Of a DNA stretch of 64,000 bases, positions 27,865-55,273 are shown piece by piece; position 1 is the stretch's first letter; every line of letters begins with the position of its first letter. The notes under the pieces are model-generated. The model saw only the letters and a list, made by a program, of their open reading frames with translations, ran no database searches and was not told the DNA's origin. This DNA is from Escherichia coli (lineage in GTDB: Bacteria; Pseudomonadota; Gammaproteobacteria; Enterobacterales; Enterobacteriaceae). The stretch lies in assembly GCF_051903065.1 (NCBI RefSeq), contig NZ_CP178438.1; one strand, 5' to 3'. The translations under genes were made by a program, and so were the position numbers.

Positions 27865-27869
27865 ATGAC

Positions 27870-29554: not shown

Positions 29555-29829
29555 ACTAACTCCTTAATTGCGTTTGGTTTGACTTATTAAGTCTGGTTGC
29601 TATTTTTATAATTGCCAAATAAGAATACTGCCAATTGTTATAAGGCATTTAAAATCAGCCAACTAGCTGTCAAATATTCAGAGAGTTTAACTCACTAAAG
29701 TTAAGAAGATTGAAAAGTCTTAAACATATTTTCAGAATAATCGGATTTATATGTTTGAAAATTATTATATTGGACGAGTATACAGAAAAAGCAAATCACC
29801 TTTACATATAAAAGCGTGGACAAAAAACA

Positions 29830-30348: not shown

Positions 30349-30392
30349 CCAGGCTGGCCTGGCGATATCTCCAGGACAGCCATTGGTGGTGT

Positions 30393-32438
30393 TTATATGT
30401 TCAAGCCACGATGTTGCAGCATCGGCATAATCTGAGGAGCCTTACCGCGCCATTGTCGATACAGGCGTTCCAGATCTTCGCTGTTACCTCTGGAAAGGAT
30501 CGCCTCGCGAAAACGCAGCCCATTTTCACGCGTTAATCCGCCCTGCTCAACAAACCACTGGTAACCATCATCGGCCAACATTTGCGTCCACAGATAAGCG
30601 TAATAACCTGCGGCATATCCGCCACCAAAAATATGGGCAAAATAACTGCTGCGATAGCGTGGCGGTATAGCAGGAAGATCCATATTTTCCGCCACCAGCG
30701 CCCGCAATTCGAAATCATCGACATCCTGCATTGCTTCGTTTTCTTCCAGGCAATGCCAGCGCATATCGAGAAGTGCGGCGCTAAGCAGTTCGCTCATCTC
30801 ATACCCTTTGTTGAACAGGCTGGCATTACGCATTTTCTGTTGCAGTTCGTCAGGCATTGCTGCCCCGCTCTGATAATGCCGGGCGTAGCGAGCGAATACC
30901 TGCGGATGCGTTGCCCAGTGTTCGTTGATTTGCGAAGGAAATTCGACAAAATCACGCGGCGTGTTGGTACCGGAAAGCGTGGCATAACGCTGGCGGGCAA
31001 AAAGGCCGTGCAGTGTATGACCAAATTCATGGAATAAGGTTATGACATCATCCCAGAGTAACAACGCAGGCTCACCGGCAACGGGTTTCTGATAATTGCA
31101 GACGTTATAAATTACCGGATGCGTTTCATTAAGCGTTGATTGCTCAACAAAATTGCCCATCCATGCACCGCCGCTTTTTGAATCACGGGCGAAGAAATCA
31201 CCGTAAAATAACGCCAGCCCCACGCCATTATGATCAAATATTTCCCACACACGAACGTCAGGATGGTAGACAGGGATATCAAAACGTTCGACAAACTTAA
31301 TACCGAAGAGCTGATTCGCGGTCCAGAATACACCTTCATTCAACACCGTGTTTAATTCAAAATATGGCTTGAGCTGCGCCTCATCAAGATCAAATTTCTC
31401 CCGCCGTACCTGTTCGGCATAAAATGCCCAGTCCCACGGCTGCGCGCTAAACCCGCCTTGCTGCTTATCGATAACCGCCTGTATGGAGGCTAATTCATCG
31501 CTCGCACGTTGACGCGCCGCTGGAACAATTTCCCGCATAAAGTTAAGTGCTGCTTCAGGTGTTTTTGCCATCTGATCGGCGATTTTCCATGCGGCATAAT
31601 GAGGAAAACCAAGTAGTGTTGCCTGTTGTGCACGGATCTCCACCAGACGTTGAATGATAGCGCGGGTATCATTGGCATCATTTTTTTCCGCTCGCGTCCA
31701 GCCCGCAATAAACAGTTTTTCACGCGTCGCACGATCGCGCATTTCGGCAAGCGCCGGTTGTTGGGTGGTATTCAGCAGCGGAATCAGCCATTTGTTATCC
31801 AGACCTTTCTCGCGAGCCGCCTCTGCCGCCAGCGCAATCTCTTGCTCACTCATTCCTGCCAGCTGCGCGATATCGTTCACAACCAGACCGCCGGATTTAT
31901 TTGCTGCCAGTAATCGCTGGTTAAATTGACTGGTCAGTGTCGCAGCTTCTGTATTCAGTACTTTTAATTTTGCTTTATCAGCTTGTGCAAGTTTGGCTCC
32001 GGCTAGGACAAAACGTTGATGAATCACCTCCACCAGGCGGATGGATTCACTATCAAGCCCCAGAGATTCACGGCGTTGCCAGACAGCATCTACCCGCGCG
32101 AATAATTCACCGTTCAGATAGATATCATTAGCCAGTTCCGCCAGTTCAGCGGAAAACTGCTCGTCAAGACGCTGTAATTCATCATTGGTATGCGCCGCAG
32201 TCATCGCAAAAAAGACGCTGGTAACGCGGGTAAGTAATTCTCCGCTTTGTTCCAGTGCCAGAATAGTATTGTTGAAATCAGGTGTTTGCGGGTTAAGCGC
32301 GATGGCAGCAATTTCTGCCCGCTTTTGCAGCATTCCCTCATCGAATGCCGGGCGATAGTGATGATTGGCAATTTGATCAAAATGGGGAGCCAAATACGGC
32401 AGTGTGCTTTGCACAAGGAAAGGATTCATTGTTGTCAT
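30393..32438 (-). CDS. dcp: Dipeptidyl carboxypeptidase II (M3 metallopeptidase)
   Basis: HEFGH zinc-binding motif present; start placed at MTTMNPFLVQ (681 aa); the ORF track extends to 32504. Confidence 0.85.
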   Translation of the reverse strand: MTTMNPFLVQSTLPYLAPHFDQIANHHYRPAFDEGMLQKRAEIAAIALNPQTPDFNNTILALEQSGELLTRVTSVFFAMTAAHTNDELQRLDEQFSAELAELANDIYLNGELFARVDAVWQRRESLGLDSESIRLVEVIHQRFVLAGAKLAQADKAKLKVLNTEAATLTSQFNQRLLAANKSGGLVVNDIAQLAGMSEQEIALAAEAAREKGLDNKWLIPLLNTTQQPALAEMRDRATREKLFIAGWTRAEKNDANDTRAIIQRLVEIRAQQATLLGFPHYAAWKIADQMAKTPEAALNFMREIVPAARQRASDELASIQAVIDKQQGGFSAQPWDWAFYAEQVRREKFDLDEAQLKPYFELNTVLNEGVFWTANQLFGIKFVERFDIPVYHPDVRVWEIFDHNGVGLALFYGDFFARDSKSGGAWMGNFVEQSTLNETHPVIYNVCNYQKPVAGEPALLLWDDVITLFHEFGHTLHGLFARQRYATLSGTNTPRDFVEFPSQINEHWATHPQVFARYARHYQSGAAMPDELQQKMRNASLFNKGYEMSELLSAALLDMRWHCLEENEAMQDVDDFELRALVAENMDLPAIPPRYRSSYFAHIFGGGYAAGYYAYLWTQMLADDGYQWFVEQGGLTRENGLRFREAILSRGNSEDLERLYRQWRGKAPQIMPMLQHRGLNI

Positions 32439-32574
32439 TTTCTTCTCCTGAACGCGAGGTGTTCCATAGCGTAGGCTTACTGATAACGGAGTGCAATCTT
32501 GCAAACCAGTATTACCCGCTCTTAAGCATCACGTGCTATGTTATTGACACACAAAAGCGTTGAGGAACAGTGAG

Positions 32575-33321
32575 ATGATCGTTTTAGTAACTGGAGCAAC
32601 GGCAGGTTTTGGTGAATGCATTACTCGTCGTTTTATTCAACAAGGGCATAAAGTTATCGCCACTGGCCGTCGCCAGGAACGGTTGCAGGAGTTAAAAGAC
32701 GAACTGGGAGATAATCTGTACATCGCCCAACTGGACGTTCGCAACCGCGCCGCTATTGAAGAGATGCTGGCATCGCTCCCTGCCGAGTGGAGCAATATTG
32801 ATATCCTGGTAAACAATGCCGGCCTGGCGTTGGGCATGGAGCCTGCGCATAAAGCCAGCGTTGAAGACTGGGAAACGATGATTGATACAAACAACAAAGG
32901 CCTGGTATATATGACGCGCGCCGTCTTACCGGGTATGGTTGAACGTAATCATGGTCATATTATTAACATTGGCTCAACGGCAGGTAGCTGGCCGTATGCC
33001 GGTGGTAACGTTTACGGTGCGACGAAAGCGTTTGTTCGTCAGTTTAGCCTGAATCTGCGTACGGACCTGCATGGTACGGCGGTGCGCGTCACCGACATCG
33101 AACCGGGTCTGGTGGGTGGCACCGAGTTTTCCAATGTCCGCTTTAAAGGCGATGACGGTAAAGCGGAAAAAACCTATCAAAATACCGTTGCATTGACGCC
33201 GGAAGATGTCAGCGAAGCCGTCTGGTGGGTGTCAACGCTGCCTGCTCACGTCAATATCAATACCCTGGAAATGATGCCGGTTACCCAAAGCTATGCCGGG
33301 CTGAATGTCCACCGTCAGTAA
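32575..33321 (+). CDS. ydfG: NADP-dependent 3-hydroxy acid dehydrogenase (SDR)
   Basis: SDR with TGATAGFG Rossmann motif; start placed at MIVLVTGATAGFG (248 aa). Confidence 0.85.
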   Translation: MIVLVTGATAGFGECITRRFIQQGHKVIATGRRQERLQELKDELGDNLYIAQLDVRNRAAIEEMLASLPAEWSNIDILVNNAGLALGMEPAHKASVEDWETMIDTNNKGLVYMTRAVLPGMVERNHGHIINIGSTAGSWPYAGGNVYGATKAFVRQFSLNLRTDLHGTAVRVTDIEPGLVGGTEFSNVRFKGDDGKAEKTYQNTVALTPEDVSEAVWWVSTLPAHVNINTLEMMPVTQSYAGLNVHRQ

Positions 33322-33409
33322 TTTTTATACCCGGCGTAACTGCCGGGTTATTGCTTGTCACAAAAAAGTGGTAGACTCATGCAGTTAACTCACTCACAAG
33401 CAAGAACGA

Positions 33410-34096
33410 ATGACCGTCGAAACGCAACTTAATCCCACACAGCCTGTCAATCAGCAAATTTATCGTATCCTTCGTCGCGACATTGTCCATTGCCTGATTG
33501 CCCCAGGCACACCGTTGTCGGAAAAAGAAGTTTCTGTTCGTTTCAATGTGTCACGCCAGCCGGTTCGTGAAGCCTTTATTAAACTGGCGGAAAACGGCCT
33601 GATTCAAATTCGTCCGCAGCGTGGCAGCTACGTCAACAAAATTTCCATGGCCCAGGTGCGCAACGGCAGTTTTATCCGTCAGGCCATTGAGTGCGCGGTG
33701 GCGCGTCGGGCGGCGAGCATGATTACCGAAAGCCAGTGCTACCAACTGGAACAAAATCTTCACCAGCAACGCATTGCCATTGAGCGCAAGCAACTGGATG
33801 ATTTTTTTGAACTTGATGACAACTTCCATCAACTCCTGACGCAGATTGCCGACTGTCAACTGGCGTGGGATACCATTGAGAACCTGAAAGCGACCGTTGA
33901 TCGCGTGCGCTATATGAGTTTCGACCACGTTTCTCCACCAGAAATGCTGTTACGCCAGCATCTTGATATTTTCTCTGCCCTGCAAAAACGTGATGGCGAT
34001 GCGGTAGAACGTGCAATGACGCAACATTTGCAGGAAATCAGCGAATCCGTGCGCCAGATCCGTCAGGAAAACAGCGACTGGTTTAGCGAAGAGTAA
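33410..34096 (+). CDS. ydfH: GntR/FadR-family transcriptional regulator
   Basis: 228-aa ORF with N-terminal GntR HTH and FCD C-terminal domain. Confidence 0.85.
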
Positions 34097-34272
34097 TTCA
34101 TTTCCTCTCATCCCATCCGGGGTGAGAGTCTTTTCCCCCGCCTTATGGCTCATGCATGCATCAAAAAAGATGTGAGCTTGATCAAAAACAAAAAATATTT
34201 CACTCGACAGGAGTATTTATATTGCGCCCGTTACGTGGGCTTCGACTGTAAATCAGAAAGGAGAAAACACCT

Positions 34273-34476
34273 ATGACGACCTACGATCGTAACCGTAACG
34301 CAATCACCACTGGCAGCCGTGTTATGGTTAGCGGCACCGGTCACACTGGCAAGATCCTGTCGATTGATACTGAAGGTCTGACCGCTGAGCAAATCCGCCG
34401 CGGAAAAACCGTAGTTGTTGAAGGTTGTGAAGAGAAACTGGCACCTCTGGACCTGATTCGTCTCGGCATGAACTAA
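34273..34476 (+). CDS. ydfZ: Small protein YdfZ
   Basis: 67-aa ORF; K-12 gene order. Confidence 0.75.
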
Positions 34477-34510
34477 GCGTGTGAATGCCGCCGATGGCGG
34501 CATTGCTTTT

Positions 34511-35971
34511 TTACTTCACGGAATATTTCGCCACGGTCGCTTTCGCACCATGCGCTAATAAAAACAAGTACGCTTCCGTCACTTTTGCAGTAAACAAGCT
34601 ATTGTCTGGCAAATCATCACCAAAGATCGCCTTAATCGCCAGCAATGACTGGACGCGCGCTTTCCCTTCGGCACTACTTTGTACAGCCTTCTGAATAACA
34701 GGTAACAGTGGGTCACTGATTTCAATCGGATTTCCCTGTTCATCAACACCACCGACATAACGCATCCAACCCGCGACGCCCAGCGCCAGCAGATCGAACT
34801 TGCTGTCATGCGCCAGATGCCAGCGAACAGAATCCAACATCCGCTGTGGCAATTTCTGGCTGCCATCCATCGCAATCTGCCAGGTTCGATGGCGTAACGC
34901 CGGGTTGCTATAGCGTGCAATTAATCGGTTAGCGTAATCTTGCAAATCAACGCCCTGCACTTTCAGCGTCGGCGCTTGTTCCTGCAACATCAAGCCATAC
35001 GCCGCATGACGATAATGTTCATCTTCCATACAGTCATTAATGTGCTGATATCCGGCAAGATAACCCAGATACGCCAGGAATGAATGACTGCCGTTGAGCA
35101 TGCGCAACTTCATCTCTTCATAAGGCAGTACATCGCTAACCAGTTCTGCTCCCGCTTTTTCCCATTCCGGACGTCCGGCAACAAAATTATCTTCGATTAC
35201 CCACTGGCGGAAAGGTTCACAGGCAACGCCAGCAGGATCGCGCACACCGGTAAGTTGTTCGATTTTCGCCAGCGTATCCTCTGTCACTGCGGGCACAATA
35301 CGGTCCACCATTGTTGATGGGAAAGTCACGTTATCTTCGATCCATTGTGCCAGTTTTACATCAACGGCTTGCGCGTAGGAAGTGACAACGTCACGCATAA
35401 CATGACCGTTTTCTGGCATGTTGTCACATGACATGACGGTAAATGCGGGAAGTCCTGCCGCTTTACGGCGAGCCAGCGCCTCAACAATCACCCCTGTTGC
35501 TGTTTTCGGCTGGTGGGGATTTTGCACGTCGGCAACGACCATCGGGTGATCGAGCATTAACTGTCCGGTCGCCGGAGAGTGGAAATACCCTTTTTCGGTG
35601 ATTGTCAGAGAGACAATCGCGATTTGTGGTTCACACATCGCAGCCAACACGGTTTCTAAGCCATCTATCTGTACGTGCAAGGCTTTTTTAACGACGCCAA
35701 CGACGCGAGCCGTCCACGCATCGGCCGACATTTCCGCAACGGTATAAAGATTATCTTGCTGTTGTAAATCGGCAATTTGCTGTTCGCCACCGATTAAGTT
35801 GACCTCATAATATCCCCAGTCACTGAAATGTTCTGTAGCAAGAATATCGGCATACACGCCCTGATGCGCACGGTGAAATGCACCAAAGCCTAAATGAACA
35901 ATTCTTGGGGCCAGGTTATTACGATCATAAACAGGGAGTGTCGCTTTTGCTGATAACAAATTATTTCCCAT
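34511..35971 (-). CDS. ydfI: Mannitol-dehydrogenase-family oxidoreductase
   Basis: 486-aa ORF with N-terminal Rossmann fold. Confidence 0.85.
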
Positions 35972-36059
35972 AACAATTCCTTAAATTTAAATATGGCAAG
36001 CTACATGTTTTGTTATATGAAGAAAAATCCCCTCTCCGGTAAGAGAAGGGATTGAGGAT

Positions 36060-37343
36060 TTAAAGACTTCTGGAAGGTTGCGCAGCTCTTACAACACGCG
36101 GTTGATCTTCCGCAGCGTCTTCCAGCGCACTTAAATCACGGTCTTTCACTTCTGGCATTTTCAGCGCAGAGATTAAACCAATCACTGAATATGCCATGAT
36201 CATAATGGCGATTGGATACCAGGATTCCGTCATGGTGCAGAAAATACCCGCCAGGATAGGACCAAAACCGGAAGCGATAAGACCACCAATTTCTTTAGAA
36301 ATAGCCATCCGGGTAAAGCGGTTTTTACAGCCGAACATTTCTGCCATGGTAATGTTTTCCAGAGCAAATAATCCCAGCACCGCACAGTTATGAATCACAA
36401 TCAGTGCAACCATAATGGTGCTCGGGGCATAGCTTTTATCTACGATGATAGAAAGCATTGGCCATGCCAGCACAATCGCGGAGGTATTCATAATAATATA
36501 CGGGATCCGGCGACCAATTTTATCGGATAACCAACCAAGGAACGGAATGGTCATAAAGCCGAGAATCGAACTAATCATCAATGCATCTGTTGGAATTGCT
36601 TTGTTAAACAATAACGTCTGCACTAAATAGCCTGCAAGGAAAGTCTGAATTAACCCGGAGTTACCCGCCTGACCAAAACGCAGCCCTGTTGCCAGCCAGA
36701 AGGATTTGCTCTGGAACATGCTACCAGCAGGTGCAGGTTTTGCTGTCGGTTGGTTGCTGTCGTTAACCTTCTCAAAGACCGGGCTTTCTTTCAGATTCAT
36801 ACGCAACCAGATAGCAAAGACCATCACGACAACGCTCGCCAGGAACGGTATACGCCATCCCCACGCCAGCAGTTCCTCTTTACTGAGAATGAAGAACATA
36901 AAGGCCCAGATTGCCGTTGCGCTTAAGGTTCCGCAGTTAGTTCCCATAGCCACAAATGAGGAGATAATTCCGCGCTTACCTTTTGGCGCATATTCCGCCA
37001 GCATCGTACCGGCACCGGAAATTTCCGCACCTGCACCCAACCCCTGAATAATACGCAGCGTCACCAGCAAGATGGGTGCAAAAACACCAATCTGTGCATA
37101 GGTCGGTAACACACCAATTAAGGTGGTACAGATCCCCATCATGGTGATGGTAATAAAGAGCACTTTTTTACGCCCTATTCTGTCGCCCATTTTGCCGAAA
37201 ATAAATGCTCCGACAATACGCGCCACATAACCTGCACCGTAGGTTCCCATTGCCAGAATTAACGCCATTGCCGTTGATGATTCAGGAAAAAATATTTCAT
37301 GAAACACTAACGCTGCGCCGAGTGAATATAACTGGAAATCCAT
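36060..37343 (-). CDS. ydfJ: MFS metabolite:H+ symporter-family transporter, probably N-terminally truncated at the prophage junction
   Basis: 427-aa MFS ORF whose 5' end abuts an abrupt shift to AT-rich phage-like DNA at about 37345. Confidence 0.7.
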   Translation of the reverse strand: MDFQLYSLGAALVFHEIFFPESSTAMALILAMGTYGAGYVARIVGAFIFGKMGDRIGRKKVLFITITMMGICTTLIGVLPTYAQIGVFAPILLVTLRIIQGLGAGAEISGAGTMLAEYAPKGKRGIISSFVAMGTNCGTLSATAIWAFMFFILSKEELLAWGWRIPFLASVVVMVFAIWLRMNLKESPVFEKVNDSNQPTAKPAPAGSMFQSKSFWLATGLRFGQAGNSGLIQTFLAGYLVQTLLFNKAIPTDALMISSILGFMTIPFLGWLSDKIGRRIPYIIMNTSAIVLAWPMLSIIVDKSYAPSTIMVALIVIHNCAVLGLFALENITMAEMFGCKNRFTRMAISKEIGGLIASGFGPILAGIFCTMTESWYPIAIMIMAYSVIGLISALKMPEVKDRDLSALEDAAEDQPRVVRAAQPSRSL

Positions 37344-37946
37344 AATTCACAGGTGTTTTTTCCCATCCTGTGGTTTCCTTGGCGTTTTCTAGGTTTTTTC
37401 AGATAGTTGCATTTTTTAAAAAGCATCCTAAGTTCGATCTCAGTGTCTATCTGGGGCCTATTTCTGTCCCATATATGCCCCAAAAAAACTCCCCAACAGA
37501 TAAGTAGTTTTTTCATGGATTTATGCGTAAAATCAAGAACGGCTGGAAATCATTCAATACTCACACTATCGAAAAATTTACCAGCCAACCGCAGCACGTT
37601 CTTGCATAAGGCGTGTCTGCGTTTTTTCAACTATTCAGATACATCACTCCCATCACAGTCATTCCTCCGCATCAAAGGCATATAGGCTATATCACCTTGA
37701 TATTTTTCTTTTTCAGATAAAAACTGTTATCTATGTATACTTTTAAACCCAATCCGTGTAGAGTCTCTGCATAAGATAGTTTGCAGTTGCCGCTTCAGCT
37801 TGCGCCATAAACCGCCTGATTTTTGCTGCCACCTGCTAGCATTCCTGTATACCTGAAACGACAATGTTTATCTACGAACTTTAAAAACACCCAAGATAAA
37901 AATTGTCAACTATATCATATATAACACATTACTAATTCGAGGCTAT

Positions 37947-38060
37947 ATGAACAGCATACTGATAATCACTTCTCTCCTTATCATATTCAGCATTTTTAGT
38001 CATGCCCTAATAAAATTAGGGATTGGCATATCCAATAACCCAGACAAAACCGATGTATAA
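37947..38060 (+). CDS. Candidate small hydrophobic protein (37 aa)
   Basis: ATG...TAA encodes [37 protein letters not shown], a single predicted TM helix; no homology check possible here. Confidence 0.3.
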
Positions 38061-38128
38061 GTCAACATATCCTGAATCAGACATACAATATCGCAATGAA
38101 AATCAATAATATTTTAAGGAATATCTTC

Positions 38129-38362
38129 ATGAAATCAAAAGACACCCTAAAGTGGTTCCCTGCGCAGCTTCCTGAAGTAAGAATTATCCTAGGGGATGCT
38201 GTAGTGGAAGTAGCAAAACAGGGAAGACCTATTAATACCAGAACATTGCTTGATTACATTGAAGGAAACATAAAGAAAAAATCATGGCTGGATAACAAAG
38301 AATTATTACAAACAGCGATATCAGTTCTTAAAGACAACCAAAATTTAAATGGTAAAATGTAA
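38129..38362 (+). CDS. ydfK: Prophage cold-shock-induced protein YdfK
   Basis: 77 aa from MKSKDTLKWFPAQLPEVRIILGDAVVEVAK... Confidence 0.8.
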   Translation: MKSKDTLKWFPAQLPEVRIILGDAVVEVAKQGRPINTRTLLDYIEGNIKKKSWLDNKELLQTAISVLKDNQNLNGKM

Positions 38363-38679
38363 TATAATAAACTTACTTTTTTATCATTTTTCCACTTTAA
38401 CAACATTTTTCTCCACTTTTCCACGTCCAAACAACTTGAAATCTGGTTAAAATAACACGCAACACTATTCTTCTTCCTTGAGTCCGCCCGGAACTCGAAA
38501 AACAAACCGAGTTAAAGCCATTTTTCACAAAATCGATTTTGGGTCTCACCAAAAATTACGGGGTTGCATACGCATTCGTTTATTTTCGAACGTGTACATA
38601 CAAATATGCACAAAAATAATCATAATTATTTTCTGAGATGCATTATGATATGAACACCAATTTCGAATAGAGTCTCACT

Positions 38680-39270
38680 ATGTCTCGAATTTTTGCTTAC
38701 TGTCGGATATCAACGCTGGATCAGACCACCGAAAATCAACGCCGGGAAATCGAAAGTGCAGGTTTTAAAATCAAACCTCAGCAAATAATCGAAGAACACA
38801 TTAGCGGCTCAGCAGCAACCAGTGAGCGTCCTGGTTTTAACCGGTTGCTTGCTCGCCTGAAATGTGGTGATCAATTGATTGTGACAAAACTGGATCGCCT
38901 TGGTTGTAATGCAATGGATATCAGGAAAACAGTGGAACAACTGACCGAAACAGGTATCAGAGTGCATTGCTTAGCATTGGGTGGCATTGACCTGACCAGT
39001 CCAACAGGAAAAATGATGATGCAAGTAATTTCAGCAGTCGCTGAATTTGAACGAGACCTTTTACTTGAACGCACTCATTCCGGGATAGTAAGAGCCCGCG
39101 GCGCAGGGAAACGTTTTGGTCGACCACCTGTGTTAAATGAAGAACAGAAACAGGTGGTATTCGAACGAATTAAGTCAGGTGTAAGTATAAGTGCCATTGC
39201 CCGGGAATTCAAAACCTCGCGGCAAACCATTTTAAGAGCCAAAGCAAAACTTCAGACACCTGACATATAA
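38680..39270 (+). CDS. pinQ: Serine recombinase, DNA invertase (Pin/Gin/Hin family)
   Basis: 196-aa ORF with catalytic N-terminus [15 protein letters not shown] and C-terminal HTH. Confidence 0.9.
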
Positions 39271-39367
39271 AAAATAATCTCGGTGTGAGATGCTTTACGT
39301 GTTCCAAGCCCCCTTCCTTGCCGTAAATGGAAAGATACATCTAATTATAGAATTTATATGTTTTACC

Positions 39368-39943
39368 CTACGGCAGTGCTGGCCATTCAATATCCTGTGC
39401 AGTTGACGTATCAACACGGTTCAGCAATACCCGATACTTTTTCCATGCTTCCAGCAACGAGATTTCTTCCTCCGTTGCAATTTCCAGATCTGCAGCATCC
39501 TGAAGCGGCGCAATATGCTCACTGGCTACCTGCATCAGGTTGTTTTTTGTTTCTTCCGCCTCCCGGATCCGGAACAGTTTTTCTGCTTCCGTATCCTTCA
39601 CCCAGGCTGTGCCGTTCCACTTCTGAAACTCCCCTTCCGGCGATAACCAGGTAACATTTTCCGGTAACGGACCGAGTTCAGAAATAAATAACGCGTCGCC
39701 GGAAGCCACGTCATAGACGGTTTTTCCCCGATGATCTTCAACGAGATGCCACGATGCCTCATCACTGTTGAAAACAGCCACGAAGCCTGCCGGAATATCT
39801 GGCGGTGCAATATCGGTACTGTTTGCTGGCAGACCTGTATGAGGCGGAATATATGCGTCACCTTCACCAATAAATTCATTAGTTCCGGCCAGCAGATTAT
39901 AAATTTTTATGGTCTGTGGTTGTTCACTCATTCTGAATGCCAT
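39368..39943 (-). CDS. tfaQ: Tail fibre assembly protein
   Basis: 191-aa ORF of the lambda Tfa family, immediately downstream of stf. Confidence 0.85.
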
Positions 39944-41159
39944 TATGCAAGCCTCACAATATAGTTAAATGCGATGTTTTTGACGGTGTTTTCCGCGTTA
40001 CCAGCAGCGTTAACGGTGATGGTGTGTCCATGTGAACCAATCGCAACGGAGTGCGTATGAGCACCAATACCGACAGTATGTGCATGTGCGCCTGCGCTTG
40101 CAGCAGTGCCGGACAGCGAGTGGGTATGAGCACCATCTGATGATGTCTTCCCTGCATTACGAGTCTGGCCACTACCGCTTGTTGTGCTCATAATCCCCGC
40201 GCTTAGATTTGAAATCGCGGTATAACCATTAGGGAAAATGCTCGTGTTCGTGCCACCAAATGCACCGGAACTCTTGTGTTGGTGCGCACCGGCACTATTT
40301 GCAGTCCCGCTAATACTATGGGTATGCGCCCCGGTGTTATTCGTGGATTTGGTTCCGTAATCAAACGACGATGTGTTTTTCGTCCCCAAATCCGTACTGG
40401 ATGCGCTGGCGCTGTGGGTGTGCGATTTAATGCCGTCCTGTTCCTGAGACAATACGGCACGACCACTGGCGGGTTTGCCCTTAATCGTCCAGCCACGCAT
40501 ATCAGGGATCACGGCTGACGGATAAGCGGCTGCAAGTTTCGGGTATGCAGATTTGTCAAAAGTCTGCCCCTGCATCAGGGCATAGCCAGACGGAACGGTA
40601 TCTGATGGCCACGGGATTGGTGCGCCAGGCGGATAAAACTGCTCTGATGGCGTATAGAGTGAATAAACTGTACCGTCCGTTAACCCTTCCGGCTTATTAG
40701 CAGAATATGCTGGTGACGTATGAATCGTCACGCTGGCATTACTGGTATAATCCCATTGAATATTTACACCAGTCGCATAATTTCCGATTGCAACGTAAAT
40801 ATCGTAAGTATCACCAGATGTATTGACCCAGGCAAAATTTGTAAACCCTGTCGATGTGCGCTGCCATAAAGCACCAGTAATCCCCTTCGGATTACCATTA
40901 CCTGCACGCAAAACAAGTTCAGATATACCTGCCTGTTGAGGTGACCCCACGTTAAATCCCGCGCCACCAATCAACGTAATTGAAACAACAGAACTCGCCT
41001 GTGGCATGGTTACCGTTGCTAATTTGAACCAACCAGCACCACCGCTGAATGACATTGTTGTTGAGTTAAGCGTACCAATATCTTTCGGCGTCAGTGTTAT
41101 ATCCGCTGAAAGCGCCTTACCATTCACCTTACGGGCAGAAGGTACCCGACCATTCGCAT
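39943..41159 (-). pseudogene. stfQ: Side tail fibre protein, C-terminal portion only (5' end cut by the IS903-like element)
   Basis: Open frame runs without a stop from the IS boundary at 41159; Gly/Ser/Thr/His-rich repeats typical of Stf; nearest start (GTG) at 41127. Confidence 0.8.
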
Positions 41160-42216
41160 GGCTTTGTTGAATAAATCGAACTTTTGCTGAGTTGAAGGAT
41201 CAGATCACGTATCTTCCCGACAACGCAGACCGTTCCGTGGCAAAGCAAAAGTTCAAAATCACCAACTGGCCCACCTACAATAAAGCCCTCATCAACCGTG
41301 GCTCCATAACTTTCTGGCTGGATGATGAAGCTATTCAGGCCTGGTATGAGTCAGCAACACCTTCTTCACGAGGCAGACCTCAGCGCTATTCTGACCTTGC
41401 CATCACGACTGTGCTGGTCATTAAACGCGTATTCAGGCTGACCCTGCGCGCTGCGCAGGGCTTTATTGATTCCATTTTTTCTCTGATGAACGTTCCGCTA
41501 CGCTGCCCGGATTACAGCTGTGTCAGCAGGCGGGCAAAGTCGGTTAATGTCAGTTTCAAAACGCCCACCCGGGGTGAAATCGCACACCTGGTAATTGATT
41601 CCACCGGGCTGAAGGTCTTCGGTGAAGGCGAGTGGAAAGTCAAAAAGCATGGCCAGGAACGCCGCCGTATCTGGCGTAAGCTGCATCTCGCCGTTGACAG
41701 TAAAACACATGAAATCATCTGCGCTGACCTGTCGCTGAACAACGTTACGGACTCAGAGGCCTTCCCCGGGTTAATCCGGCAAACCCACCGGAAAATCAGG
41801 TCAGCCGCCGCCGATGGCGCTTACGATACCCGGCTATGTCACGATGAACTGCGGCGTAAGAAAATCAGCGCGCTTATCCCTCCCCGAAAAGGTGCGGGTT
41901 ACTGGCCCGGTGAATATGCAGACCGTAACCGTGCAGTGGCTAATCAGCGAATGACCGGGAGTAATGCGCGGTGGAAATGGACAACAGATTACAACCGTCG
42001 CTCGATAGCGGAAACGGCGATGTACCGGGTAAAACAGCTGTTCGGGGGTTCACTGACACTGCGTGACTACGATGGTCAGGTTGCAGAGGCTATGGCCCTG
42101 GTACGAGCGCTGAACAAAATGACGAAAGCAGGTATGCCTGAAAGCGTGCGTATTGCCTGAAAACACAACCCGCTACGGGGGAGACTTACCCGAAATCTGA
42201 TTTATTCAACAAAGCC
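41160..42216 (+). mobile_element. IS903-like element (IS5 family, IS903 group), 1057 bp
   Basis: Terminal inverted repeats GGCTTTGTTGAATAAATC at 41160-41177 and its reverse complement at 42199-42216; flanking 9-mers differ (CATTCGCAT versus TTTATGACC), so no target-site duplication. Confidence 0.85.
41192..42160 (+). CDS. IS903-group DDE transposase
   Basis: 322-aa ORF recognised as IS903/IS102-like transposase (…[42 protein letters not shown]…). Confidence 0.85.
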
Positions 42217-43317
42217 TTTATGACCTAAAAGAAGTTCGACAATATAAGGATCCGCCCCCATATCATTAAGCGTAGTGGAAAATGTGCGCCTGAAATCATG
42301 TATGCACCACAAGCCATTAGTATCATGACCAAGACACCTGCATATTCTGTTTGCAGCCCCTGTTATTGTCGCCCTTTGCAAAGCACAACCGACAACATAA
42401 CCGCGATTTTTTGTTTCTGCGTAAAGATTAACGATCCATTGTTTTATTCCGTCAGGAACAGGCCTTACTATAGCCTCCTTGTTTTTGCTGTGCTCTTTTG
42501 GGACTGTCCATACCCAGTTTTTTAAATCCCATTCGTCCCAGGTGGATAGCCTCGCCTCCTGCTGTCGGCAACCAAACACCAGGCAGATAACCATTATTCT
42601 TCGGTTATATATTGATGACAGAGTTAGCAAATTATTACCGTAAGCATAAGACCATACATCAGCGGTTTCATTGATATTAAGAACGCGATCCCTTATACCG
42701 GATGAGCGCCCGACATAACTTACGTTAATATCTCCAAAGGGATCGCACGCGATGTATTGCCTGACGCGACAAAAACGCAACGCCTGTTTGATATCAAGAA
42801 AAATTGCACCAGACATAACAGGCGCATTTTTTTTGATCCTGTCAAAGACGGTAAGCCATGTGTGTAATTTGCACTGTTCTATAGCCATATCACCGATATA
42901 GGGGAAGATATGCTTTTCAAATCGTTTTATTAAATATTCATGCTCTTTTCTGGCTGTTGTGGCGTGATTGTCGTACCAGTAAAACAGCGCATCCCTTACG
43001 GTCACTGGTTGCATAGTTTTTTCGGCAGCAAGTTTTATTTGCCTGCGGGGGTCCAGATTTTCAGCCAGCCATTCACGGCACTGATCACGCATGCGCCTGG
43101 CCGTTGCAAGAGACATGTCAGGATAGCGACCAAGTGTAAGCCATACCGGAGGGGATTCCCTGCCACCAAGACGATAGTAAAAAACAAAGCTGATCCCCCC
43201 AACCATGCTTACACGCACAGACAACCCGCGCCCATCCGCTATTGTTTTTTGTTTGTCCTGCCGTTTTCCGACAAGACTCTTTAACAGTTTGTCACTGAGT
43301 TTGTTTTCAATAGCCAT
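42217..43317 (-). pseudogene. P4-like tyrosine integrase, 3'-truncated by the IS903-like element
   Basis: P4-type N-terminus and HDFRRTF...LLGH box, but the frame runs into the IS terminal repeat before the catalytic tyrosine would be encoded. Confidence 0.8.
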
Positions 43318-43335
43318 TAAAAGCCCTCAAGAGAT

Positions 43336-43389
43336 TTGCAATACACACCCATCCCGATCGCCAATTTGCAATACACATTGCAATACACA
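43336..43389. repeat. Three direct copies of TTGCAATACACA immediately upstream of the integrase start
   Basis: Copies at 43336-43347, 43366-43377 and 43378-43389 (last two in tandem); candidate arm-type recombinase or regulator binding sites. Confidence 0.6.
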
Positions 43390-43465
43390 AAACCGCGAAA
43401 AACTGGAAGGGTGATGAACGGTCATCAAAAGCATGGAAAACGACATTCCAGACGCAGCAAGGGTT

Positions 43466-46446
<2,981 letters not shown>

Positions 46447-46472
<26 letters not shown>

Positions 46473-46992
46473 TCAGCAACCCCGGTATCAGTTCATCCAG
46501 CGCGGCTGCTTTGTTCATGGCTTTGATGATATCCCGTTTCAGGAAATCAACATGTCGGTTTTCCAGTTCCGGAAAACGCCGCTGCACCGACAGGGGGATC
46601 CCGTCGAGAATACTGGCAATTTCACCTGCGATCCGCGACAGCACGAAAGTACAGAATGCGGTTTCCACCACTTCAGCGGAGTCTCTGGCATTTTTCAGCT
46701 CCTGTGCGTCGGCCTGCGCACGCGTAAGTCGATGGCGTTCGTACTCAATAGTCCCTGGCTGGAGATCTGTCTCGCTGGCCTGCCGCAGTTCTTCAACTTC
46801 CCGGCGCAGCTTTTCGTTCTCAATTTCAGCATCCCTTTCGGCATACCATCTTATAACGGCGGCAGAGTCATAAAGCACCTCATTACCCTTGCCACCGCCT
46901 CGCAGAACGGGCATTCCCTGTTCCTGCCAGTTCTGAATGGTACGGATACTCGCACCGAAAATGTCAGCCAGCTGCTTTTTGTTGACTTCCAT
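46447..46992 (-). CDS. nohA: Terminase small subunit (lambda Nu1 homologue)
   Basis: 181-aa ORF MEVNKKQLADIFGASIRTIQNWQEQGMPVLRGGGKGNEVLYD... matching lambda Nu1; symbol assumes equivalence with Qin nohA. Confidence 0.85.
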
Positions 46993-47169
46993 TGTTCATT
47001 CCACGGCCAAAAACAGAGAAAGGAAACGACAGAGGCCCAAAAGCTCGTTTTCAGCACCTGTCGTTTCCTTTCTTTTCAGAGGGTATTTTAAATAAAAACA
47101 TCAAGTTACGACGAAGAAGAACGGAAACGCCTTAAACCGGAAAATTTTCATAAATAGCGAAAACCCGCG

Positions 47170-47181
47170 AGGTCGCCGCCC
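47170..47181 (-). other. cosN cohesive-end site (lambda-type 12-nt GGGCGGCGACCT)
   Basis: Reverse complement of AGGTCGCCGCCC; 190 bp upstream of the Nu1 start exactly as in lambda, with cosB-like sequence in between. Confidence 0.85.
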
Positions 47182-47380
47182 CGTAACCTGTCGGATCGCC
47201 GGAAAGGACCCGCAAAATGATAATAATTATCATCTGCATGTCACAACGTGCATCTACGCCATCAAACCACGTCAAATAATCAATTATGACGCAGATATCG
47301 TATTAATTGATCTGCATCAACTTAACGTAAAAACAACTTCAGACAATACAAATCAGCGACACTGAATACGGGACAACCTC

Positions 47381-47614
47381 ATGTCAACGAAGAACAGAAC
47401 CCGCAGAACAACAACCCGCAACATCCGCTTTCCTAACCAAATGATTGAACAAATTAACATCGCTCTTGAGCAAAAAGGGTCCGGGAATTTCTCAGCCTGG
47501 GTCATTGAAGCCTGCCGCCGGAGACTGTGCTCAGAAAAAAGAGTTTCTTCTGAAGCAAACAAAGAAAAGAGTGACATTACTGAATTGCTCAGAAAACAGG
47601 TCAGACCAGATTGA
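47381..47614 (+). CDS. ynfO: Prophage protein YnfO
   Basis: 77-aa ORF on the far side of cos; K-12 Qin gene order nohA-ynfO-ydfO. Confidence 0.7.
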   Translation: MSTKNRTRRTTTRNIRFPNQMIEQINIALEQKGSGNFSAWVIEACRRRLCSEKRVSSEANKEKSDITELLRKQVRPD

Positions 47615-47671
47615 AGCAATTTAGATAATCGTGCAGACTACGCCCCCTCATATCACATGGAAGGTTTATCT

Positions 47672-48082
47672 ATGGATCAGGTAGTCATTTTTAAACAAAT
47701 ATTTGATAAAGTTCGAAACGATTTAAACTATCAATGGTTTTATTCTGAGCTAAAACGTCACAATGTCTCACATTACATTTACTATTTAGCCACAGAGAAT
47801 GTTCATATTGTATTAAAAAATGATAATACAGTGTTATTAAAGGGCCTAAAAAACATTGTGTCTGTCAAATTTTCAAAGGATAGGCATCTTATAGAAACGA
47901 CCTCTAATAAGCTGAAATCCAGAGAGATCACATTTCAGGAATACAGAAGAAACCTTGCTAAAGCAGGAGTTTTTCGGTGGGTTACAAATATCCACGAACA
48001 AAAAAGATATTACTATACCTTTGATAATTCATTACTATTTACTGAAAGCATCCAGAAAACTACACAGATCTTACCACGCTAA
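47672..48082 (+). CDS. ydfO: Prophage protein YdfO (DUF1398)
   Basis: Start placed at [11 protein letters not shown] (136 aa); the ORF track allows 47657. Confidence 0.75.
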
Positions 48083-48233
48083 ACCATAACGTCCGGCTTC
48101 TCTCACTCCTGAGCCGGACTGCATTGGTTTAATAAAAACCATCAACAATTGTGATTTAGATATTCGGAACCATTCAAATATAACAAAACCCCGTAAAAAC
48201 GAGGTTTATGGATAAATTTTATTATTGAATACA

Positions 48234-48407
48234 TCAGATTAAATTAATCTTGACATCATAGCTTTCAAGACCCGTCATTTTTTCCCGTGCGGTAAACTGA
48301 ATACTGGTAACTTCTTTCCCGGTCTTTTTCTTAAGTTCAATAATTTTTTTTGTTATATATTCAGAAATATCTGCTTCTGCTTTTGTTTTTAAGTTTTCAA
48401 TATTCAT
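48234..48407 (-). CDS. gnsB: GnsB (suppressor of secG/fabA phenotypes, GnsA/GnsB family)
   Basis: Read from DNA: MNIENLKTKAEADISEYITKKIIELKKKTGKEVTSIQFTAREKMTGLESYDVKINLI (57 aa). Confidence 0.8.
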   Translation of the reverse strand: MNIENLKTKAEADISEYITKKIIELKKKTGKEVTSIQFTAREKMTGLESYDVKINLI

Positions 48408-48578
48408 CATTTCCTCTTTTAGTCTGTTATGACTTTCCAGTTACACAGTAAGTCGATTATATGGTGCAAACGTGTAAAAGATAAGATGAAACATCGCAAT
48501 AATCAACATACGATAGTCTAAATTTTACACAAACAGACAAAGAGAATTTTCCTGAATTATCAATGCAATAGCATCAAA

Positions 48579-48734
48579 TCAACTCAAGAGCCTTATTGCT
48601 GCTTCCAGAATTTCTTCTGAAGTAACATGTCGATCCGCGGCTACATAAATGACTTTATGATCTCCGGTCAGAGATGGAAACCCTGCGGCCATTACAGTAA
48701 GGTGTGTTTTTTCGCCATTTGGATATTCACGCAT
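48579..48734 (-). CDS. ynfN: Small prophage protein YnfN
   Basis: 51 aa from MREYPNGEKTHLTVMAAGFPSLTG...; start choice based on my recollection of a 51-aa product, with alternative upstream starts available. Confidence 0.55.
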   Translation of the reverse strand: MREYPNGEKTHLTVMAAGFPSLTGDHKVIYVAADRHVTSEEILEAAIRLLS

Positions 48735-49080
48735 GATGGTGTTAACTCCAGTCATCGCTGGCACTACCACTGCTGGTTCAGAGTTAAAAAAAACTATGAT
48801 TTTTTTCATGATGTTACCGTAGTATGTGAGTATCCATCGAATAGACACCAAGCAAAAAAGCTCCCGAAGGAGCCTTCATTTTCACTTTTTTAAATCCAAC
48901 GACAGACGGCTGGCATTTAAGTATTGTGAAATATTATCAAATGTAATCATCATTGATTTACAAAAGATACATTTTGCCCCGAAAGGATTCATGTCAGAAA
49001 CATCAAAAGATGATGTTCTATACTGGGAACCATGACAACACGGGCATCTAAAGTGAATATGGTTTGTAATATTGTCTACC

Positions 49081-49293
49081 TCAAAGCGCCACTACATGAA
49101 CAGCGGCAGGACCTTTAGGTCCGTTCTCAATACCAAATTCAACTTCCTGATTCTCAGTTAATGTTTTGAAATCGTTGCTCTGAATTGCTGAGAAATGGAC
49201 AAACACATCTTTGCTGCCATCTTTCGGCGTGATGAAACCAAAACCTTTTTCAGGGTTAAACCATTTCACTAAACCAGTCATTTTGTTAGACAT
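49081..49293 (-). CDS. cspI: Cold shock protein CspI
   Basis: 70-aa [44 protein letters not shown]... Confidence 0.9.
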
Positions 49294-49655
49294 AATTATT
49301 ACCTTTTGAAGAAATTAGCCCTTGGGCAGAATGGTCCGAAAAAAAATATCAGAGAGAAAAACCAACAAGGAAATCTCAAGAGGTACAAATAATAAAATTA
49401 TAACAATGACTGCTTCAGATAAATTTGTAACAAACCAGAACACCATTAACGCATGATTAACCACCCATAGCAAGGATTACTTTTGTAAAGAAAAACACAG
49501 CAATGAAAGAATAGCTTTATTTATTAATAAAACGTGTCATTCTGATTAAGACCTTTTATCTTACCCTTAAGATTTCAGGAATTTTGGCTCATGGAAGAGT
49601 CCTTTTTATTTAAATTTTACATTCCGCGATGTAAATGTTCCGATTTAATATTACC

Positions 49656-50679
<1,024 letters not shown>

Positions 50680-50683
<4 letters not shown>

Positions 50684-50991
50684 AGATATTTATGATGAGG
50701 ACGCTCGTGCTTATTGGCAGGATTTTCAATCTTAAAGGAGTACTGATGCTGCAGATAAGACTCAACTTTTTCTGACAATTTTTCTGCTACTTCCAGGAAG
50801 ACTTGCCGGACGCTCCTTCTGGCTGCTGCCTCATAAAACTCCAGCGCAGCTCCTTCAACACGGTCCATGGCGACATCCAGGTCAAAAATTTCACCGTCAA
50901 AGCGTTCTTTGTCCTGTAAGGCTACAGTTACCGTAACTTTATTCTCAAAATTACGGACTCCTTTCACAACCAGTTCATAGTCTTGAGTCAT
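50680..50991 (-). CDS. ydfR: Prophage protein YdfR (DUF1327)
   Basis: 103-aa ORF between holin and endolysin. Confidence 0.75.
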
Positions 50992-50995
50992 TGGA

Positions 50996-51211
50996 TTACT
51001 CTCCTCTCGCAGCCTTACGCCTGTCTTCTTTAATCTTGAAATAAAGATTTGTCAGATACGTCAGCAGGCAAAAAACCAGGCTACCCAGCACACCGATTGC
51101 AGCCCACTGTGACGGAGTTACTTTATCGAGTAACTGCAATGCCCAGAAACCAGCATTACCCGCCGATGTGCCATAGGCAACACCTGTTGTTAACTTATCC
51201 ATTGATTTCAT
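50996..51211 (-). CDS. essQ: Class II holin (phage 21 S-like)
   Basis: 71 aa from [14 protein letters not shown]... with two TM segments; first gene of the lysis cassette. Confidence 0.8.
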
Positions 51212-51429
51212 ATCCTCACCCCGATGTACACGGATGGTGCAATATGTTTGAAAAGATCGGAGTCTACGGGGTAGTTTTGACAGCACACGTTGTTCTCAAC
51301 GGCGCTAAAAAACATACACATTAAAAATGTGGGTAATTATTTTGAAAGAAAATCATATATAAAATAATAATACGAGAAATGTTTTCATATTTAGTGTACT
51401 GTATACGGCCATTTATACAGGAAATGCCT

Positions 51430-51600
51430 ATGTCAGAACGTAAAGACTCAAAATCACGCCGTAATTATCTCGTTAAATGTTCCTGCCCAAACTGCACCCA
51501 AGAGTCAGAACACAGTTTTTCAAGAGTACAAAAAGGTGCCCTTTTGATCTGCCCTCATTGCAACAAAGTATTCCAGACAAATCTTAAAGCTGTAGCCTGA
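51430..51600 (+). CDS. ynfU: Small zinc-ribbon protein (56 aa)
   Basis: MSERKDSKSRRNYLVKCSCPNCTQESEHSFSRVQKGALLICPHCNKVFQTNLKAVA with CxCPxC...CPxC; symbol from memory, moderate certainty. Confidence 0.55.
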   Translation: MSERKDSKSRRNYLVKCSCPNCTQESEHSFSRVQKGALLICPHCNKVFQTNLKAVA

Positions 51601-51963
51601 TTGATTTTATTAGTAACAAGTATTTTTTATATTTTAATAATATATTTAAAGCAGATAATAAAAAACCCGCCTGAGCGGGTTTGAGATTGTGGTGCTTTTT
51701 GTGGGAGTCATCCACTTACGCACTTTGTTTTGCGATGCCAGCAGTTAGCTTCTGCTGTGAAACTATTCATGCAGCAAACCTGCACTTCACCACAATGGTT
51801 AGCATACTTTTCCTGATTAAGATTTTGCCAAATATGCTGGCCATTGTTTCATGTATTGGACCTCCTTACTTTTTATTAAAGAGATCCAATATTCACTACT
51901 CTGTCCGTATCTCTACTCAGGCATCAGCCTTCTTCGTTATCGTATACAGACGAGCGATGAATT

Positions 51964-52179
51964 TTAATCAGTAATGATGACATTTACTGCTGCAGGACCT
52001 TTAGCACCACTCTCTATAGAGAAGGTAACCTTTTGACCTTCAAATAAGGTTCGATAATTATCATTCTGAATCGCAGAAAAATGCACAAACACATCTTTAC
52101 TACCATCAACAGGAGAAATAAAGCCGAAACCTTTATCAGCGTTAAACCATTTTACTAAACCAGTCATTTTATTTGACAT
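51964..52179 (-). CDS. cspB: Cold shock protein CspB
   Basis: 71-aa [44 protein letters not shown]... Confidence 0.9.
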
Positions 52180-52489
52180 TCTACATTCCTTAACTTGAGC
52201 CTTTCGGCATAAATGGTTTGCATAACAGAAACGACTTCGTACTTAATTGGAGAGACTCAAAGAAGGAATAAGTGAATAACACCTGAAATGAGAACTGCTT
52301 TAGTAAACTACTTCGTATATCGTCTGTTCTTCAAACCGACGCAGTCATTAACTCATAGTTGAACATATGAAGCAATGTTTATTTTAGACATCCAGCCACC
52401 TTCAATCCTATCAAAAAAGTAGTTTTCTCCAGGAACGTGTGTATGGTGCACCAGGTTATCAGTATTAAGGAGTTTTTCTGTCCCCTAAA

Positions 52490-52690
52490 ATGACAGGAAT
52501 TGTCAAAAACTTTGACGGCAAAAGCGGCAAGGGTCTTATCACCCCATCCGATGGTCGTATCGATGTCCAGCTTCATGTTTCAGCGCTCAATCTCCGCGAT
52601 GCAGAAGAAATTACCACCGGATTACGCGTGGAATTTTACCGGATAAATGGTCTGCGTGGCCCTTCAGCTGCCAATGTTTACCTTTCATGA
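52490..52690 (+). CDS. cspF: Cold shock-like protein CspF
   Basis: 66-aa divergent CSD-like ORF ([30 protein letters not shown]...) opposite cspB. Confidence 0.8.
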
Positions 52691-53111
52691 GCTATATTAA
52701 AGCTTTAATTTCAGGCCCCATCGGATCACACATGGAGAGTTTTTATGAATAACCCCGTCTGTCTTGATGACTGGTTGATTGGCTTTAAAATCTTATGCTG
52801 TACTTTGGCCGTAATAGCTCTGCTAATAATATAATAAGCAGACTCATTGTGTTTAGGGACATTGTACTGGAAGAAAACATTTTAAACATCAGGCAAATAA
52901 CCAAGTCACCAGCTAAATAATAAGTTAACAGACATGAGTCCCGGGATGAGATTCAACATTACCATTGCCCCATTTAAAGCACAAAACCCGCTCATCAGCG
53001 GGTTTTCTACTTTTTCTTAACGTCGGGTATACAAAGCCCATCGTTGAAAAAATTTTATCCATATTTTTTGAAAAATGCAAACATCATGTCGCCATCTTCA
53101 GCAAAAATCAT

Positions 53112-53864: not shown

Positions 53865-53877
53865 GCTCGTTCTCCAC

Positions 53878-55207: not shown

Positions 55208-55273
55208 CGGTTTTCTCCGGTGGCACGGTGTTACTCAGCGGGAGTTCAGCCCCGCGCAAGATTGTAGATGAGT

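Follow-up and report, generated by a model that had tools for sequence, protein, structure and literature searches.

An IS903B copy joins a truncated side-tail-fibre gene to a truncated satellite integrase gene in a Qin-like prophage of Escherichia coli

IS903 and IS903B (IS5 family, IS903 group) are described elements whose length, 18-bp inverted repeats and single DDE transposase are the same as those of the copy reported here; the element itself shows no differences. Their norm is a 9-bp target duplication, and the preferred target motif of IS903 is WTTYA-N9-TRAAW (Table 1 of PMC2577343). Adjacent deletions by IS903, which arise by intramolecular, cointegrate-type transposition, are described as common, and repeated, growing deletions from one IS have been followed in a long-term evolution experiment (PMC11708052). 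Two further systems are relevant to this locus. Helper-embedded PICI (HE-PICI) satellites have the integration site B:Phage_portal_2:241, and their doubled motif and its spacing from att have been defined (Tommasini, Mageeney & Williams 2023, PMC10111431). Qin and DLP12 of E. coli K-12 are lambdoid prophages that have been stripped of structural genes, which is the same outcome as the one we describe.

The window, a 64-kb stretch of E. coli DNA, contains one IS903B copy. The initial annotation placed an IS903-like element at 41127-42230; the element is there, but its true ends lie further in (Table 1), the first 33 bp of the wider range being tail-fibre DNA and the last 14 bp integrase DNA. 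The perfect 18-bp terminal inverted repeats reported for it are present, and GGCTTTGTTGAATAAATC would be expected by chance at 0.11 matches per window even with 3 mismatches permitted. The transposase ORF matches the NCBIfam model NF033579 (IS5-family transposase) at 357 bits against a cut-off of 140. At the DNA level, the copy is 100% identical to those carrying RefSeq transposase WP_000654812.1, "IS5-like element IS903B family transposase", and the name IS903B that we use is based on this RefSeq/PGAP annotation.

Table 1. Features at and around the IS903B junction, in window coordinates.
Feature	Position	Strand	Remarks
pinQ	38680-39270	+	Part of the retained left arm of the Qin-like prophage at ydfJ
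tfaQ	39368-39943	-	Part of the retained left arm of the Qin-like prophage at ydfJ
stf', 5'-truncated side-tail-fibre gene	39943-41159	-	C-terminal 405 of 987 codons kept, N-terminal 582 lost
Left flanking 9-mer CATTCGCAT	41151-41159		Poor match to the IS903 target motif
IS903B, complete, 1057 bp	41160-42216	+	No base missing at either terminus
Left 18-bp terminal inverted repeat GGCTTTGTTGAATAAATC	41160-41177	+	
IS903B transposase ORF	41192-42160	+	322 codons from a TTG start
Right 18-bp terminal inverted repeat	42199-42216	-	Perfect complement of the left repeat
Right flanking 9-mer TTTATGACC (42217-42225), then TAAAA	42217-42230		Perfect right half TRAAW, in the correct register
int', 3'-truncated HE-PICI tyrosine integrase gene	42217-43317	-	367 of 413 codons kept
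Doubled motif TGTATTGCAATGTGTATTGC, HE-PICI attP-arm-specific	43368-43387	-	Exact match, 0 expected by chance
Satellite/portal attachment junction, ~13-bp att identity block CATA[C/A]ATCGCCTT	43513-43525		
Portal gene (lambda-B-like), N-terminal half	43513-44347	-	Interrupted by the satellite at Pfam Phage_portal_2 position ~242

The 9-mers bordering the element, CATTCGCAT and TTTATGACC, share essentially no bases, in agreement with the earlier claim that the flanks differ and no target duplication is present. Neither joint shows microhomology and the IS ends are exact, which together give the joints the appearance of transposase-made junctions. To the left, the minus-strand tail-fibre frame stays open through the IS boundary, as far as a stop inside the element; its product matches Pfam Collar and Phage_fiber. 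To the right, the integrase frame enters the IS for 4 codons (...ELLLGHK in the gene, followed by GFVE in the IS) and stops at 42202. It is cut 8 codons ahead of the catalytic Tyr, where the intact protein goes on as ...ELLLGHKVKGVAGVYNKS..., so that the Tyr downstream of the HDFRR and LGH motifs is missing from int'. Both truncations had been recognized from the window alone. The 5' truncation of stf was confirmed by its reading frame and by comparison with the sister genome described below, and the loss of the 3' end of int, running into the IS before the catalytic tyrosine, by comparison of the frame with the intact protein.

The two joints differ in how well they fit the preferred target of IS903. 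In the intact int gene, the right break sits on TTTCA-N10-TAAAA, which contains both half-sites of WTTYA-N9-TRAAW; the full motif occurs 3 times in the 64 kb with an N9 spacer and 5 times with an N10 spacer. The left joint in stf matches the half-sites at 0/5 and 3/5 positions and does not fit.

Pfam assigns the integrase an N-terminal Arm-DNA-bind_3 (DUF4102) domain and a C-terminal Phage_integrase domain. Its initial description as P4-like holds for this P4-type domain architecture, but the resemblance is broad: the NCBIfam P4-like model PRK09692 scores 64 bits, far under its cut-off of 434, and the element is a PICI rather than P4. The 64-kb window contains no tRNA genes, which rules out a tRNA attachment site for the integrase. 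The doubled TGTATTGC motif at 43368-43387 starts 132 bp from the centre of the att core (~43519). This spacing is shared with described HE-PICIs (PMC10111431), as are integration in a lambda-B-like portal gene, co-orientation and gene order; the PICI gene order was read in the sister genome, and of those genes the window retains int' alone. The remains of the HE-PICI in the window consist of the att junction, the arm motif and the 367 int codons. The genes stf' and int' thus derive from nested elements at one locus, the satellite lying inside the prophage's own portal gene.

The undeleted arrangement is found in E. coli 23CRST027, a near-clonal complete genome with at most 2 substitutions relative to the window over ~63 kb outside the IS. 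Its IS903B is identical, has the same orientation and is flanked by a perfect 9-bp duplication, CTCTGAATC, as in a simple insertion. It lies within an ~11-kb HE-PICI satellite (gene order int, AlpA-like, Bro, primase, capsid/terS, from annotation and PHROG matches), and this satellite in turn interrupts the portal gene of a lambdoid, Qin-like prophage located at ydfJ. The N- and C-terminal halves of that portal gene are split around the satellite, all on one strand. A total of 27.2 kb present in 23CRST027 is missing from the window, 24,389 bp on the left side of that IS and 2,852 bp on the right, and both window flanks are collinear with the sister genome, every match being on the same strand. 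Comparison with intact relatives, the check proposed at the outset, located a loss of 27.2 kb around a resident IS903B, and the collinearity supports the original proposal, in which either the IS mediated an adjacent deletion or two IS copies recombined, as opposed to a simple insertion.

The prophage shares its ydfJ site with the Qin prophage of K-12, and flanking ydfK, pinQ, tfaQ, nohA, cspI/B/F, relBE, hokD and dicA/C match. However, the J'::stf' or A'::stf' joints of K-12-type remnants are IS-free, whereas the joint in the window is marked by IS903B and represents a different deletion.

The explanation that we favor, with a probability of roughly 55%, is that the resident IS903B deleted DNA on both of its sides by two adjacent deletions, one from each end. 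The ancestor would have been a Qin-like lambdoid prophage at ydfJ with its portal gene interrupted by the ~11-kb HE-PICI satellite, and IS903B would first have inserted normally into the satellite, producing the duplication CTCTGAATC. In the window's lineage, intramolecular transposition of this resident copy would then have caused two one-ended adjacent deletions. In each, the IS ends would attack a nearby target on the same chromosome and the intervening DNA would be lost as a circle, leaving the IS joined through an intact terminus to its new flank with no target duplication. The right end would have shifted 2,852 bp, to the consensus IS903 target in the satellite integrase gene, and the left end 24,389 bp, into the side-tail-fibre gene. 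The losses would comprise the remaining satellite, the C-terminal half of the portal gene, all head and tail genes and the 582 N-terminal codons of stf. The lack of a duplication in the window, in contrast to the canonical one in 23CRST027, would be a property of the event and not of the element, because the flanks were deleted. A second copy with matching half duplications, which the initial annotation suggested looking for, is not expected because the deletion discards the reciprocal product.

A close parallel is provided by the nested IS150 adjacent deletions of the Lenski experiment (PMC11708052), where the IS was likewise kept with intact ends and no duplication while neighbouring DNA was lost. 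Those deletions extend stepwise from a pre-existing copy; here the stepwise path is our reconstruction, and both sides are eroded. We infer that the retained IS is the resident copy and that the joints are the work of transposase and not of RecA, and any order of the two events would be inferred in the same way. A search of 5,426 complete E. coli genomes yielded no intermediate in which one side alone is deleted. The resident copy in 23CRST027 is presumed to be ancestral. It could in principle have inserted after the lineages split; we put at ~5% the chance that one of ~20 copies would fall within this 27-kb interval in the required orientation, a figure that is raised by the apparent preference of IS903B for this prophage.

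The product sequence of two deletions is identical to the outcome of insertion followed by homologous recombination. New same-orientation IS903B insertions in stf and/or int, with RecA-dependent recombination between the direct copies, would leave a hybrid IS with mismatched flanks exactly as observed, and the int site is a consensus insertion target. The element is also multicopy and active in this clone: 23CRST027 has ~17-20 copies overall (an estimate from 21 matching places), including an extra one in gene O where the corresponding window site is empty, and this extra copy and the multicopy state indicate that IS903B was recently mobile in the clone, which counts for the two-deletion reading as well. 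This route is possible, although we lean against it. It requires three or four events rather than two, and no IS903B with a duplication at the stf or int site was found among the 5,426 complete genomes. The copies are nearly identical, which makes any signature of recombination unreadable.

A single event has also to be considered, in which one large stf-to-int deletion removed the resident IS as well and IS903B was captured at the broken ends without duplication. An IS at the centre of a deletion with no duplication is the pattern reported for IS5 in E. coli C, for which such capture was proposed (PMC11708052), but that mechanism is itself hypothetical. The right joint coincides, in exact register, with a perfect IS903 half-site, which argues for normal target choice by transposase, and the same-orientation resident copy in the lost interval would be a coincidence. 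We consider capture very improbable.

The evidence for the junction is the assembled window rather than reads, and IS copies are classic collapse points. An assembly could have joined the outer flanks across the repeat, with IS903B present in both stf and int and the 27 kb still between them. This would need two additional insertions in this strain. Moreover, the IS-int' joint is also present in an independent short-read draft assembly, GCA_036912935.1, in a contig that ends inside the IS; the exact truncated int' protein was found only in this one draft contig. In other, finished genomes (LCP30S3_I3, NT1F34 and CP53), duplication-free deletion joints at IS903B are likewise common in this prophage. 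An artefact of this kind is accordingly most unlikely.

Finally, a simple IS903B insertion into a pre-existing stf'/int' joint, with later erosion of its duplication by mutation, is a formal possibility only, and we regard its probability as negligible. CATTCGCAT and TTTATGACC have almost nothing in common, the flanks are otherwise 100% identical to the sister genome, which leaves no time for erosion, and an IS-free stf'/int' joint was absent from the 5,426 genomes.

The whole stf'-IS-int' arrangement was found in 0 of 5,426 complete E. coli genomes, with no record covering at least 80% of the region. In the same set, the right joint occurs elsewhere only in LCP30S3_I3, with a 1-bp offset; the IS there has 3 substitutions and the flanks are ~0.6% different from the window. 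We treat this joint as probably an independent event rather than shared ancestry, although a 1-bp homopolymer sequencing error is possible. For the left joint, the only counterpart is a similar but distinct IS903B::stf' joint in CP53, which is 18 bp off and in a diverged stf allele (only 78% identical). Matches H10-H16 seemed to share the left joint but proved to be distinct IS903B copies at other places in Qin or close to it. The 394-aa stf' ORF occurs very widely, but as the product of different, IS-free deletions.

The left breakpoint falls in a crowded place. Window positions 41141-41159 hold at least 4 independent rearrangement joints, and the tail-fibre break is within 18 bp of the three others. 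The members of the cluster are the widespread DLP12-type terminase-A'::stf' joint, the K-12-type Qin J'::stf' joint, the IS903B::stf' joint of CP53 and the joint in the window. The break in stf may be non-random: it could lie at a specific site prone to breakage or recombination, or at the edge of a module just upstream of a 14-residue motif, and such a place would repeatedly steer how lambdoid side-tail-fibre genes decay and are shuffled. We think this rather unlikely. A Pin/Gin-type inversion crossover was considered for this cluster and dropped: the match to gix is 8/26 by eye and there is no convincing inverted partner beside pinQ.

Prophage loss driven by IS903B, as seen here, is ordinary, well-understood and already known biology. 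The importance of the locus is limited in that it involves no new mechanism and no new kind of element. It is nevertheless a clean, nucleotide-resolved case of one IS disarming a prophage and its parasitic satellite in a couple of steps, and it explains the orphaned look of some HE-PICI integrases beside transposases. It also provides an example of the laboratory-defined IS903 target motif predicting a natural site that is hit recurrently, in int, where the joint of LCP30S3_I3 lies 1 bp away.

We put at about 90% the probability that the single IS903B copy in the window records an IS903B-associated deletion of ~27 kb relative to an ancestor like 23CRST027 (NZ_AP045789.1), a near-clonal complete sister genome. 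The initial annotation had placed the element at 41127–42230; the observation stands, with the coordinates trimmed to those in the table. At the DNA level the IS shows 100% identity with copies for which RefSeq gives the product name "IS5-like element IS903B family transposase". The element is bounded by perfect 18-bp terminal inverted repeats (GGCTTTGTTGAATAAATC). The flanking 9-mers differ (CATTCGCAT vs TTTATGACC) and hence form no target duplication; insertion of the IS into an older joint is unlikely. On the left, the minus-strand frame of stf', a 5'-truncated side-tail-fibre gene, is open over the IS boundary and meets its first upstream stop 13 codons into the IS. On the right, the frame of int', a 3'-truncated integrase gene, enters the IS for 4 codons and then stops (...ELLLGHK-GFVE*). 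The intact integrase continues past the break as ...ELLLGHKVKGVAGVYNKS... Tyrosine recombinases carry their motifs in the order HxxR, LGH, Y, and by this order the catalytic tyrosine is predicted to be 8 residues beyond the break. The initial annotation had read the repeats, the unlike 9-mers, the open stf frame and the integrase frame cut short of its tyrosine in the same way.

Features of the window, with stf joints of other loci at their equivalent positions
Feature	Window coordinates	Remarks
IS1 copy	1-728	interrupts ECSE_1600-family autotransporter gene (23CRST027 annotation)
IS200/IS605 tnpA fragment adjoining full-length TnpB	~10175-11816	between lsrG and tam; TnpB an InsQ-type RNA-guided endonuclease, 402 aa
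Left of IS: ydfJ', ydfK, pinQ, tfaQ, stf'	pinQ 38680-39270; tfaQ 39368-39943	
DLP12-type terminase-A'::stf' joint	41141-41146	widespread; microhomology TACC
K-12-type Qin J'::stf' joint	41141-41146	shared microhomology GGTACC
IS903B::stf' joint, CP53 (L005 9213-9231)	41141-41146	stf allele only 78% identical
IS903B, complete	41160-42216	1057 bp
Transposase ORF, sole one of IS903B	41192-42160	NCBIfam NF033579 (IS5-family), 357 bits vs cut-off 140
Right of IS: int', portal', gpW, terminase A, Nu1		portal', from a lambda-B-like portal gene, is 834 bp long
Doubled motif tgTGTATTGCantgTGTATTGCa	43368-43387	exact match
att identity block	43513-43525	~13 bp
Beyond Nu1: Qin lysis, csp, relBE, hokD, dicA genes		
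Truncated ISNCY-family transposase gene	~58067-59110	Qin-like prophage early region (23CRST027 annotation)
Alignment to 23CRST027	1-24013	1 mismatch
Alignment to 23CRST027	23813-41159	1 mismatch
Alignment to 23CRST027	42216-52600	100% identical
Alignment to 23CRST027	52372-64000	100% identical except additional IS903B in 23CRST027

The locus carries a Qin-like lambdoid prophage with ydfJ as its insertion site, and there are no tRNA genes within the window. Outside the stf'-IS-int' region, 23CRST027 is near-identical to it. The 23CRST027 prophage has a complete 987-codon stf, lom, J and all tail and head genes, and its portal gene is split into two halves by an ~11.8-kb satellite (locus L006, 35088-46954). 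The satellite genes, all co-oriented with the portal gene, encode an integrase, an AlpA-like excisionase/regulator, a Bro-N anti-repressor, an Icd-like product, a primase, SSB, a major capsid protein, a head-decoration protein and a small terminase subunit. Between the primase gene and a small gene sits a resident IS903B, 100% identical to the window copy and in the same orientation; its perfect 9-bp target-site duplication (TSD; CTCTGAATC) identifies it as a plain insertion. The left flank in the window ends at the base 24,389 bp left of this resident copy, and the right flank starts 2,852 bp to its right (1-bp ambiguity). The window is thus the 23CRST027 arrangement from which 27.2 kb has been removed, on both sides of one IS. 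This comparison with a prophage carrying intact stf and int, which the initial annotation had proposed, supports and refines its reading of an IS-mediated adjacent deletion or IS–IS recombination rather than a simple insertion.

The stf'-IS-int' arrangement was found in 0 of 5,426 complete E. coli genomes. 23CRST027 is a sister of the window lineage and not its direct ancestor, because it has an additional IS903B in the Qin replication gene O (locus L019, 9363-10436; 1056 bp, transposase frameshifted, TSD CCAGAATGG) whose site is empty in the window (61734-61742), where O is intact. This copy, absent from the window, shows that IS903B has been mobile in this clone.

Both IS termini are complete to the last base and neither joint has microhomology, which argues for transposase chemistry or intra-IS recombination and not random breakage. 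Capture of the IS at a broken deletion joint is unlikely. IS903 is reported to form adjacent deletions commonly, via a cointegrate-type pathway, and in a long-term evolution experiment a resident IS gave repeated, growing adjacent deletions (PMC11708052). The most economical path, to which we give slightly better than even odds, would be two adjacent deletions from the resident IS903B, one per IS end. Had new copies entered stf and/or int and then undergone homologous recombination with the resident IS, the product would be identical, and sequence alone cannot tell the two routes apart; we regard this second route as possible but doubtful. Assembly collapse across the IS is unlikely, since the IS-int' joint was seen independently in a short-read draft contig, which stops 110 bp into the IS.

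At the right break, the intact int gene reads TTTCA-C-TTTATGAC-C-TAAAA (L006 45630-45660; window side 42217-42230). Both half-sites perfectly match the motif WTTYA-N9-TRAAW published for IS903 targets (PMC2577343, Table 1), with a spacer of 10 bp instead of 9. The whole window holds 3 full motifs with the N9 spacer and 5 with N10. The window joint follows the register of the right half-site. In strain LCP30S3_I3, which belongs to an unrelated lineage, IS903B is joined to the same gene in the left half-site register (L001 9040-9075), 1 bp away, an offset that could conceivably reflect a 1-bp homopolymer sequencing error in that genome. Relative to the window, that IS has 3 substitutions, the flanks are ~0.6% different and the left flank is wholly different. 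We take the two joints as most probably independent, since 23CRST027, identical to the window, nevertheless keeps int intact. That makes the int site a hot spot for IS903 in nature.

At the left joint the IS903 target motif is not matched. This joint lies no more than 18 bp from three further, independent stf joints (window 41141-41159), giving at least 4 independent rearrangement joints within ~20 bp. The loci compared were L005 in CP53, L009/L012/L016 (~5975-5990) and L011 (~5975-5990). Sequence is uninterrupted across this point in at least 1,277 genomes, and in the public collection 271 blocks hold the exact 394-aa ORF downstream of the joint. A Pin/Gin-type crossover site as the cause of clustering did not fit the sequence.

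The initial annotation had called the integrase P4-like. Its domain architecture (Arm-DNA-bind_3 + Phage_integrase) agrees with that, but the element is not P4: it is a satellite of PICI type that sits inside its helper. Helper-embedded PICIs (HE-PICIs), described by Tommasini, Mageeney and Williams (PMC10111431), likewise interrupt the portal gene, and int' is the last remnant of one (window 42217-43525) that had integrated into the Qin-like prophage at its portal gene, the lambda B cognate. In Pfam Phage_portal_2 coordinates the portal fragment runs to position 242, corresponding to the HE-PICI site type B:Phage_portal_2:241 (PMC10111431). The doubled motif, reported as unique to HE-PICIs with fixed spacing to the att centre (PMC10111431), starts 132 bp from that centre in the window, equal to the published spacing. 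The remnant thus keeps both the att core and the doubled TGTATTGC motif. The int-att-portal' joint is present in 62 of 5,426 complete E. coli genomes.

We infer that the prophage has been stripped of every structural gene from the N-terminal half of portal to the C-terminal part of stf, and that of the satellite only an inactive integrase and a single att arm are left. Excision and particle formation would be beyond both. The observation is confirmed, and the element, mechanism and satellite class have all been described already. Both 23CRST027 and 2017.11.01CC carry IS903B copies that have duplications. TSD-less copies abut truncated Qin genes in the finished genomes of LCP30S3_I3, NT1F34 and CP53 (L001, L004, L005), with deletion end points that differ among the three; such decay is therefore routine at the Qin locus, and IS903B-linked erosion of the Qin-like prophage is recurrent.
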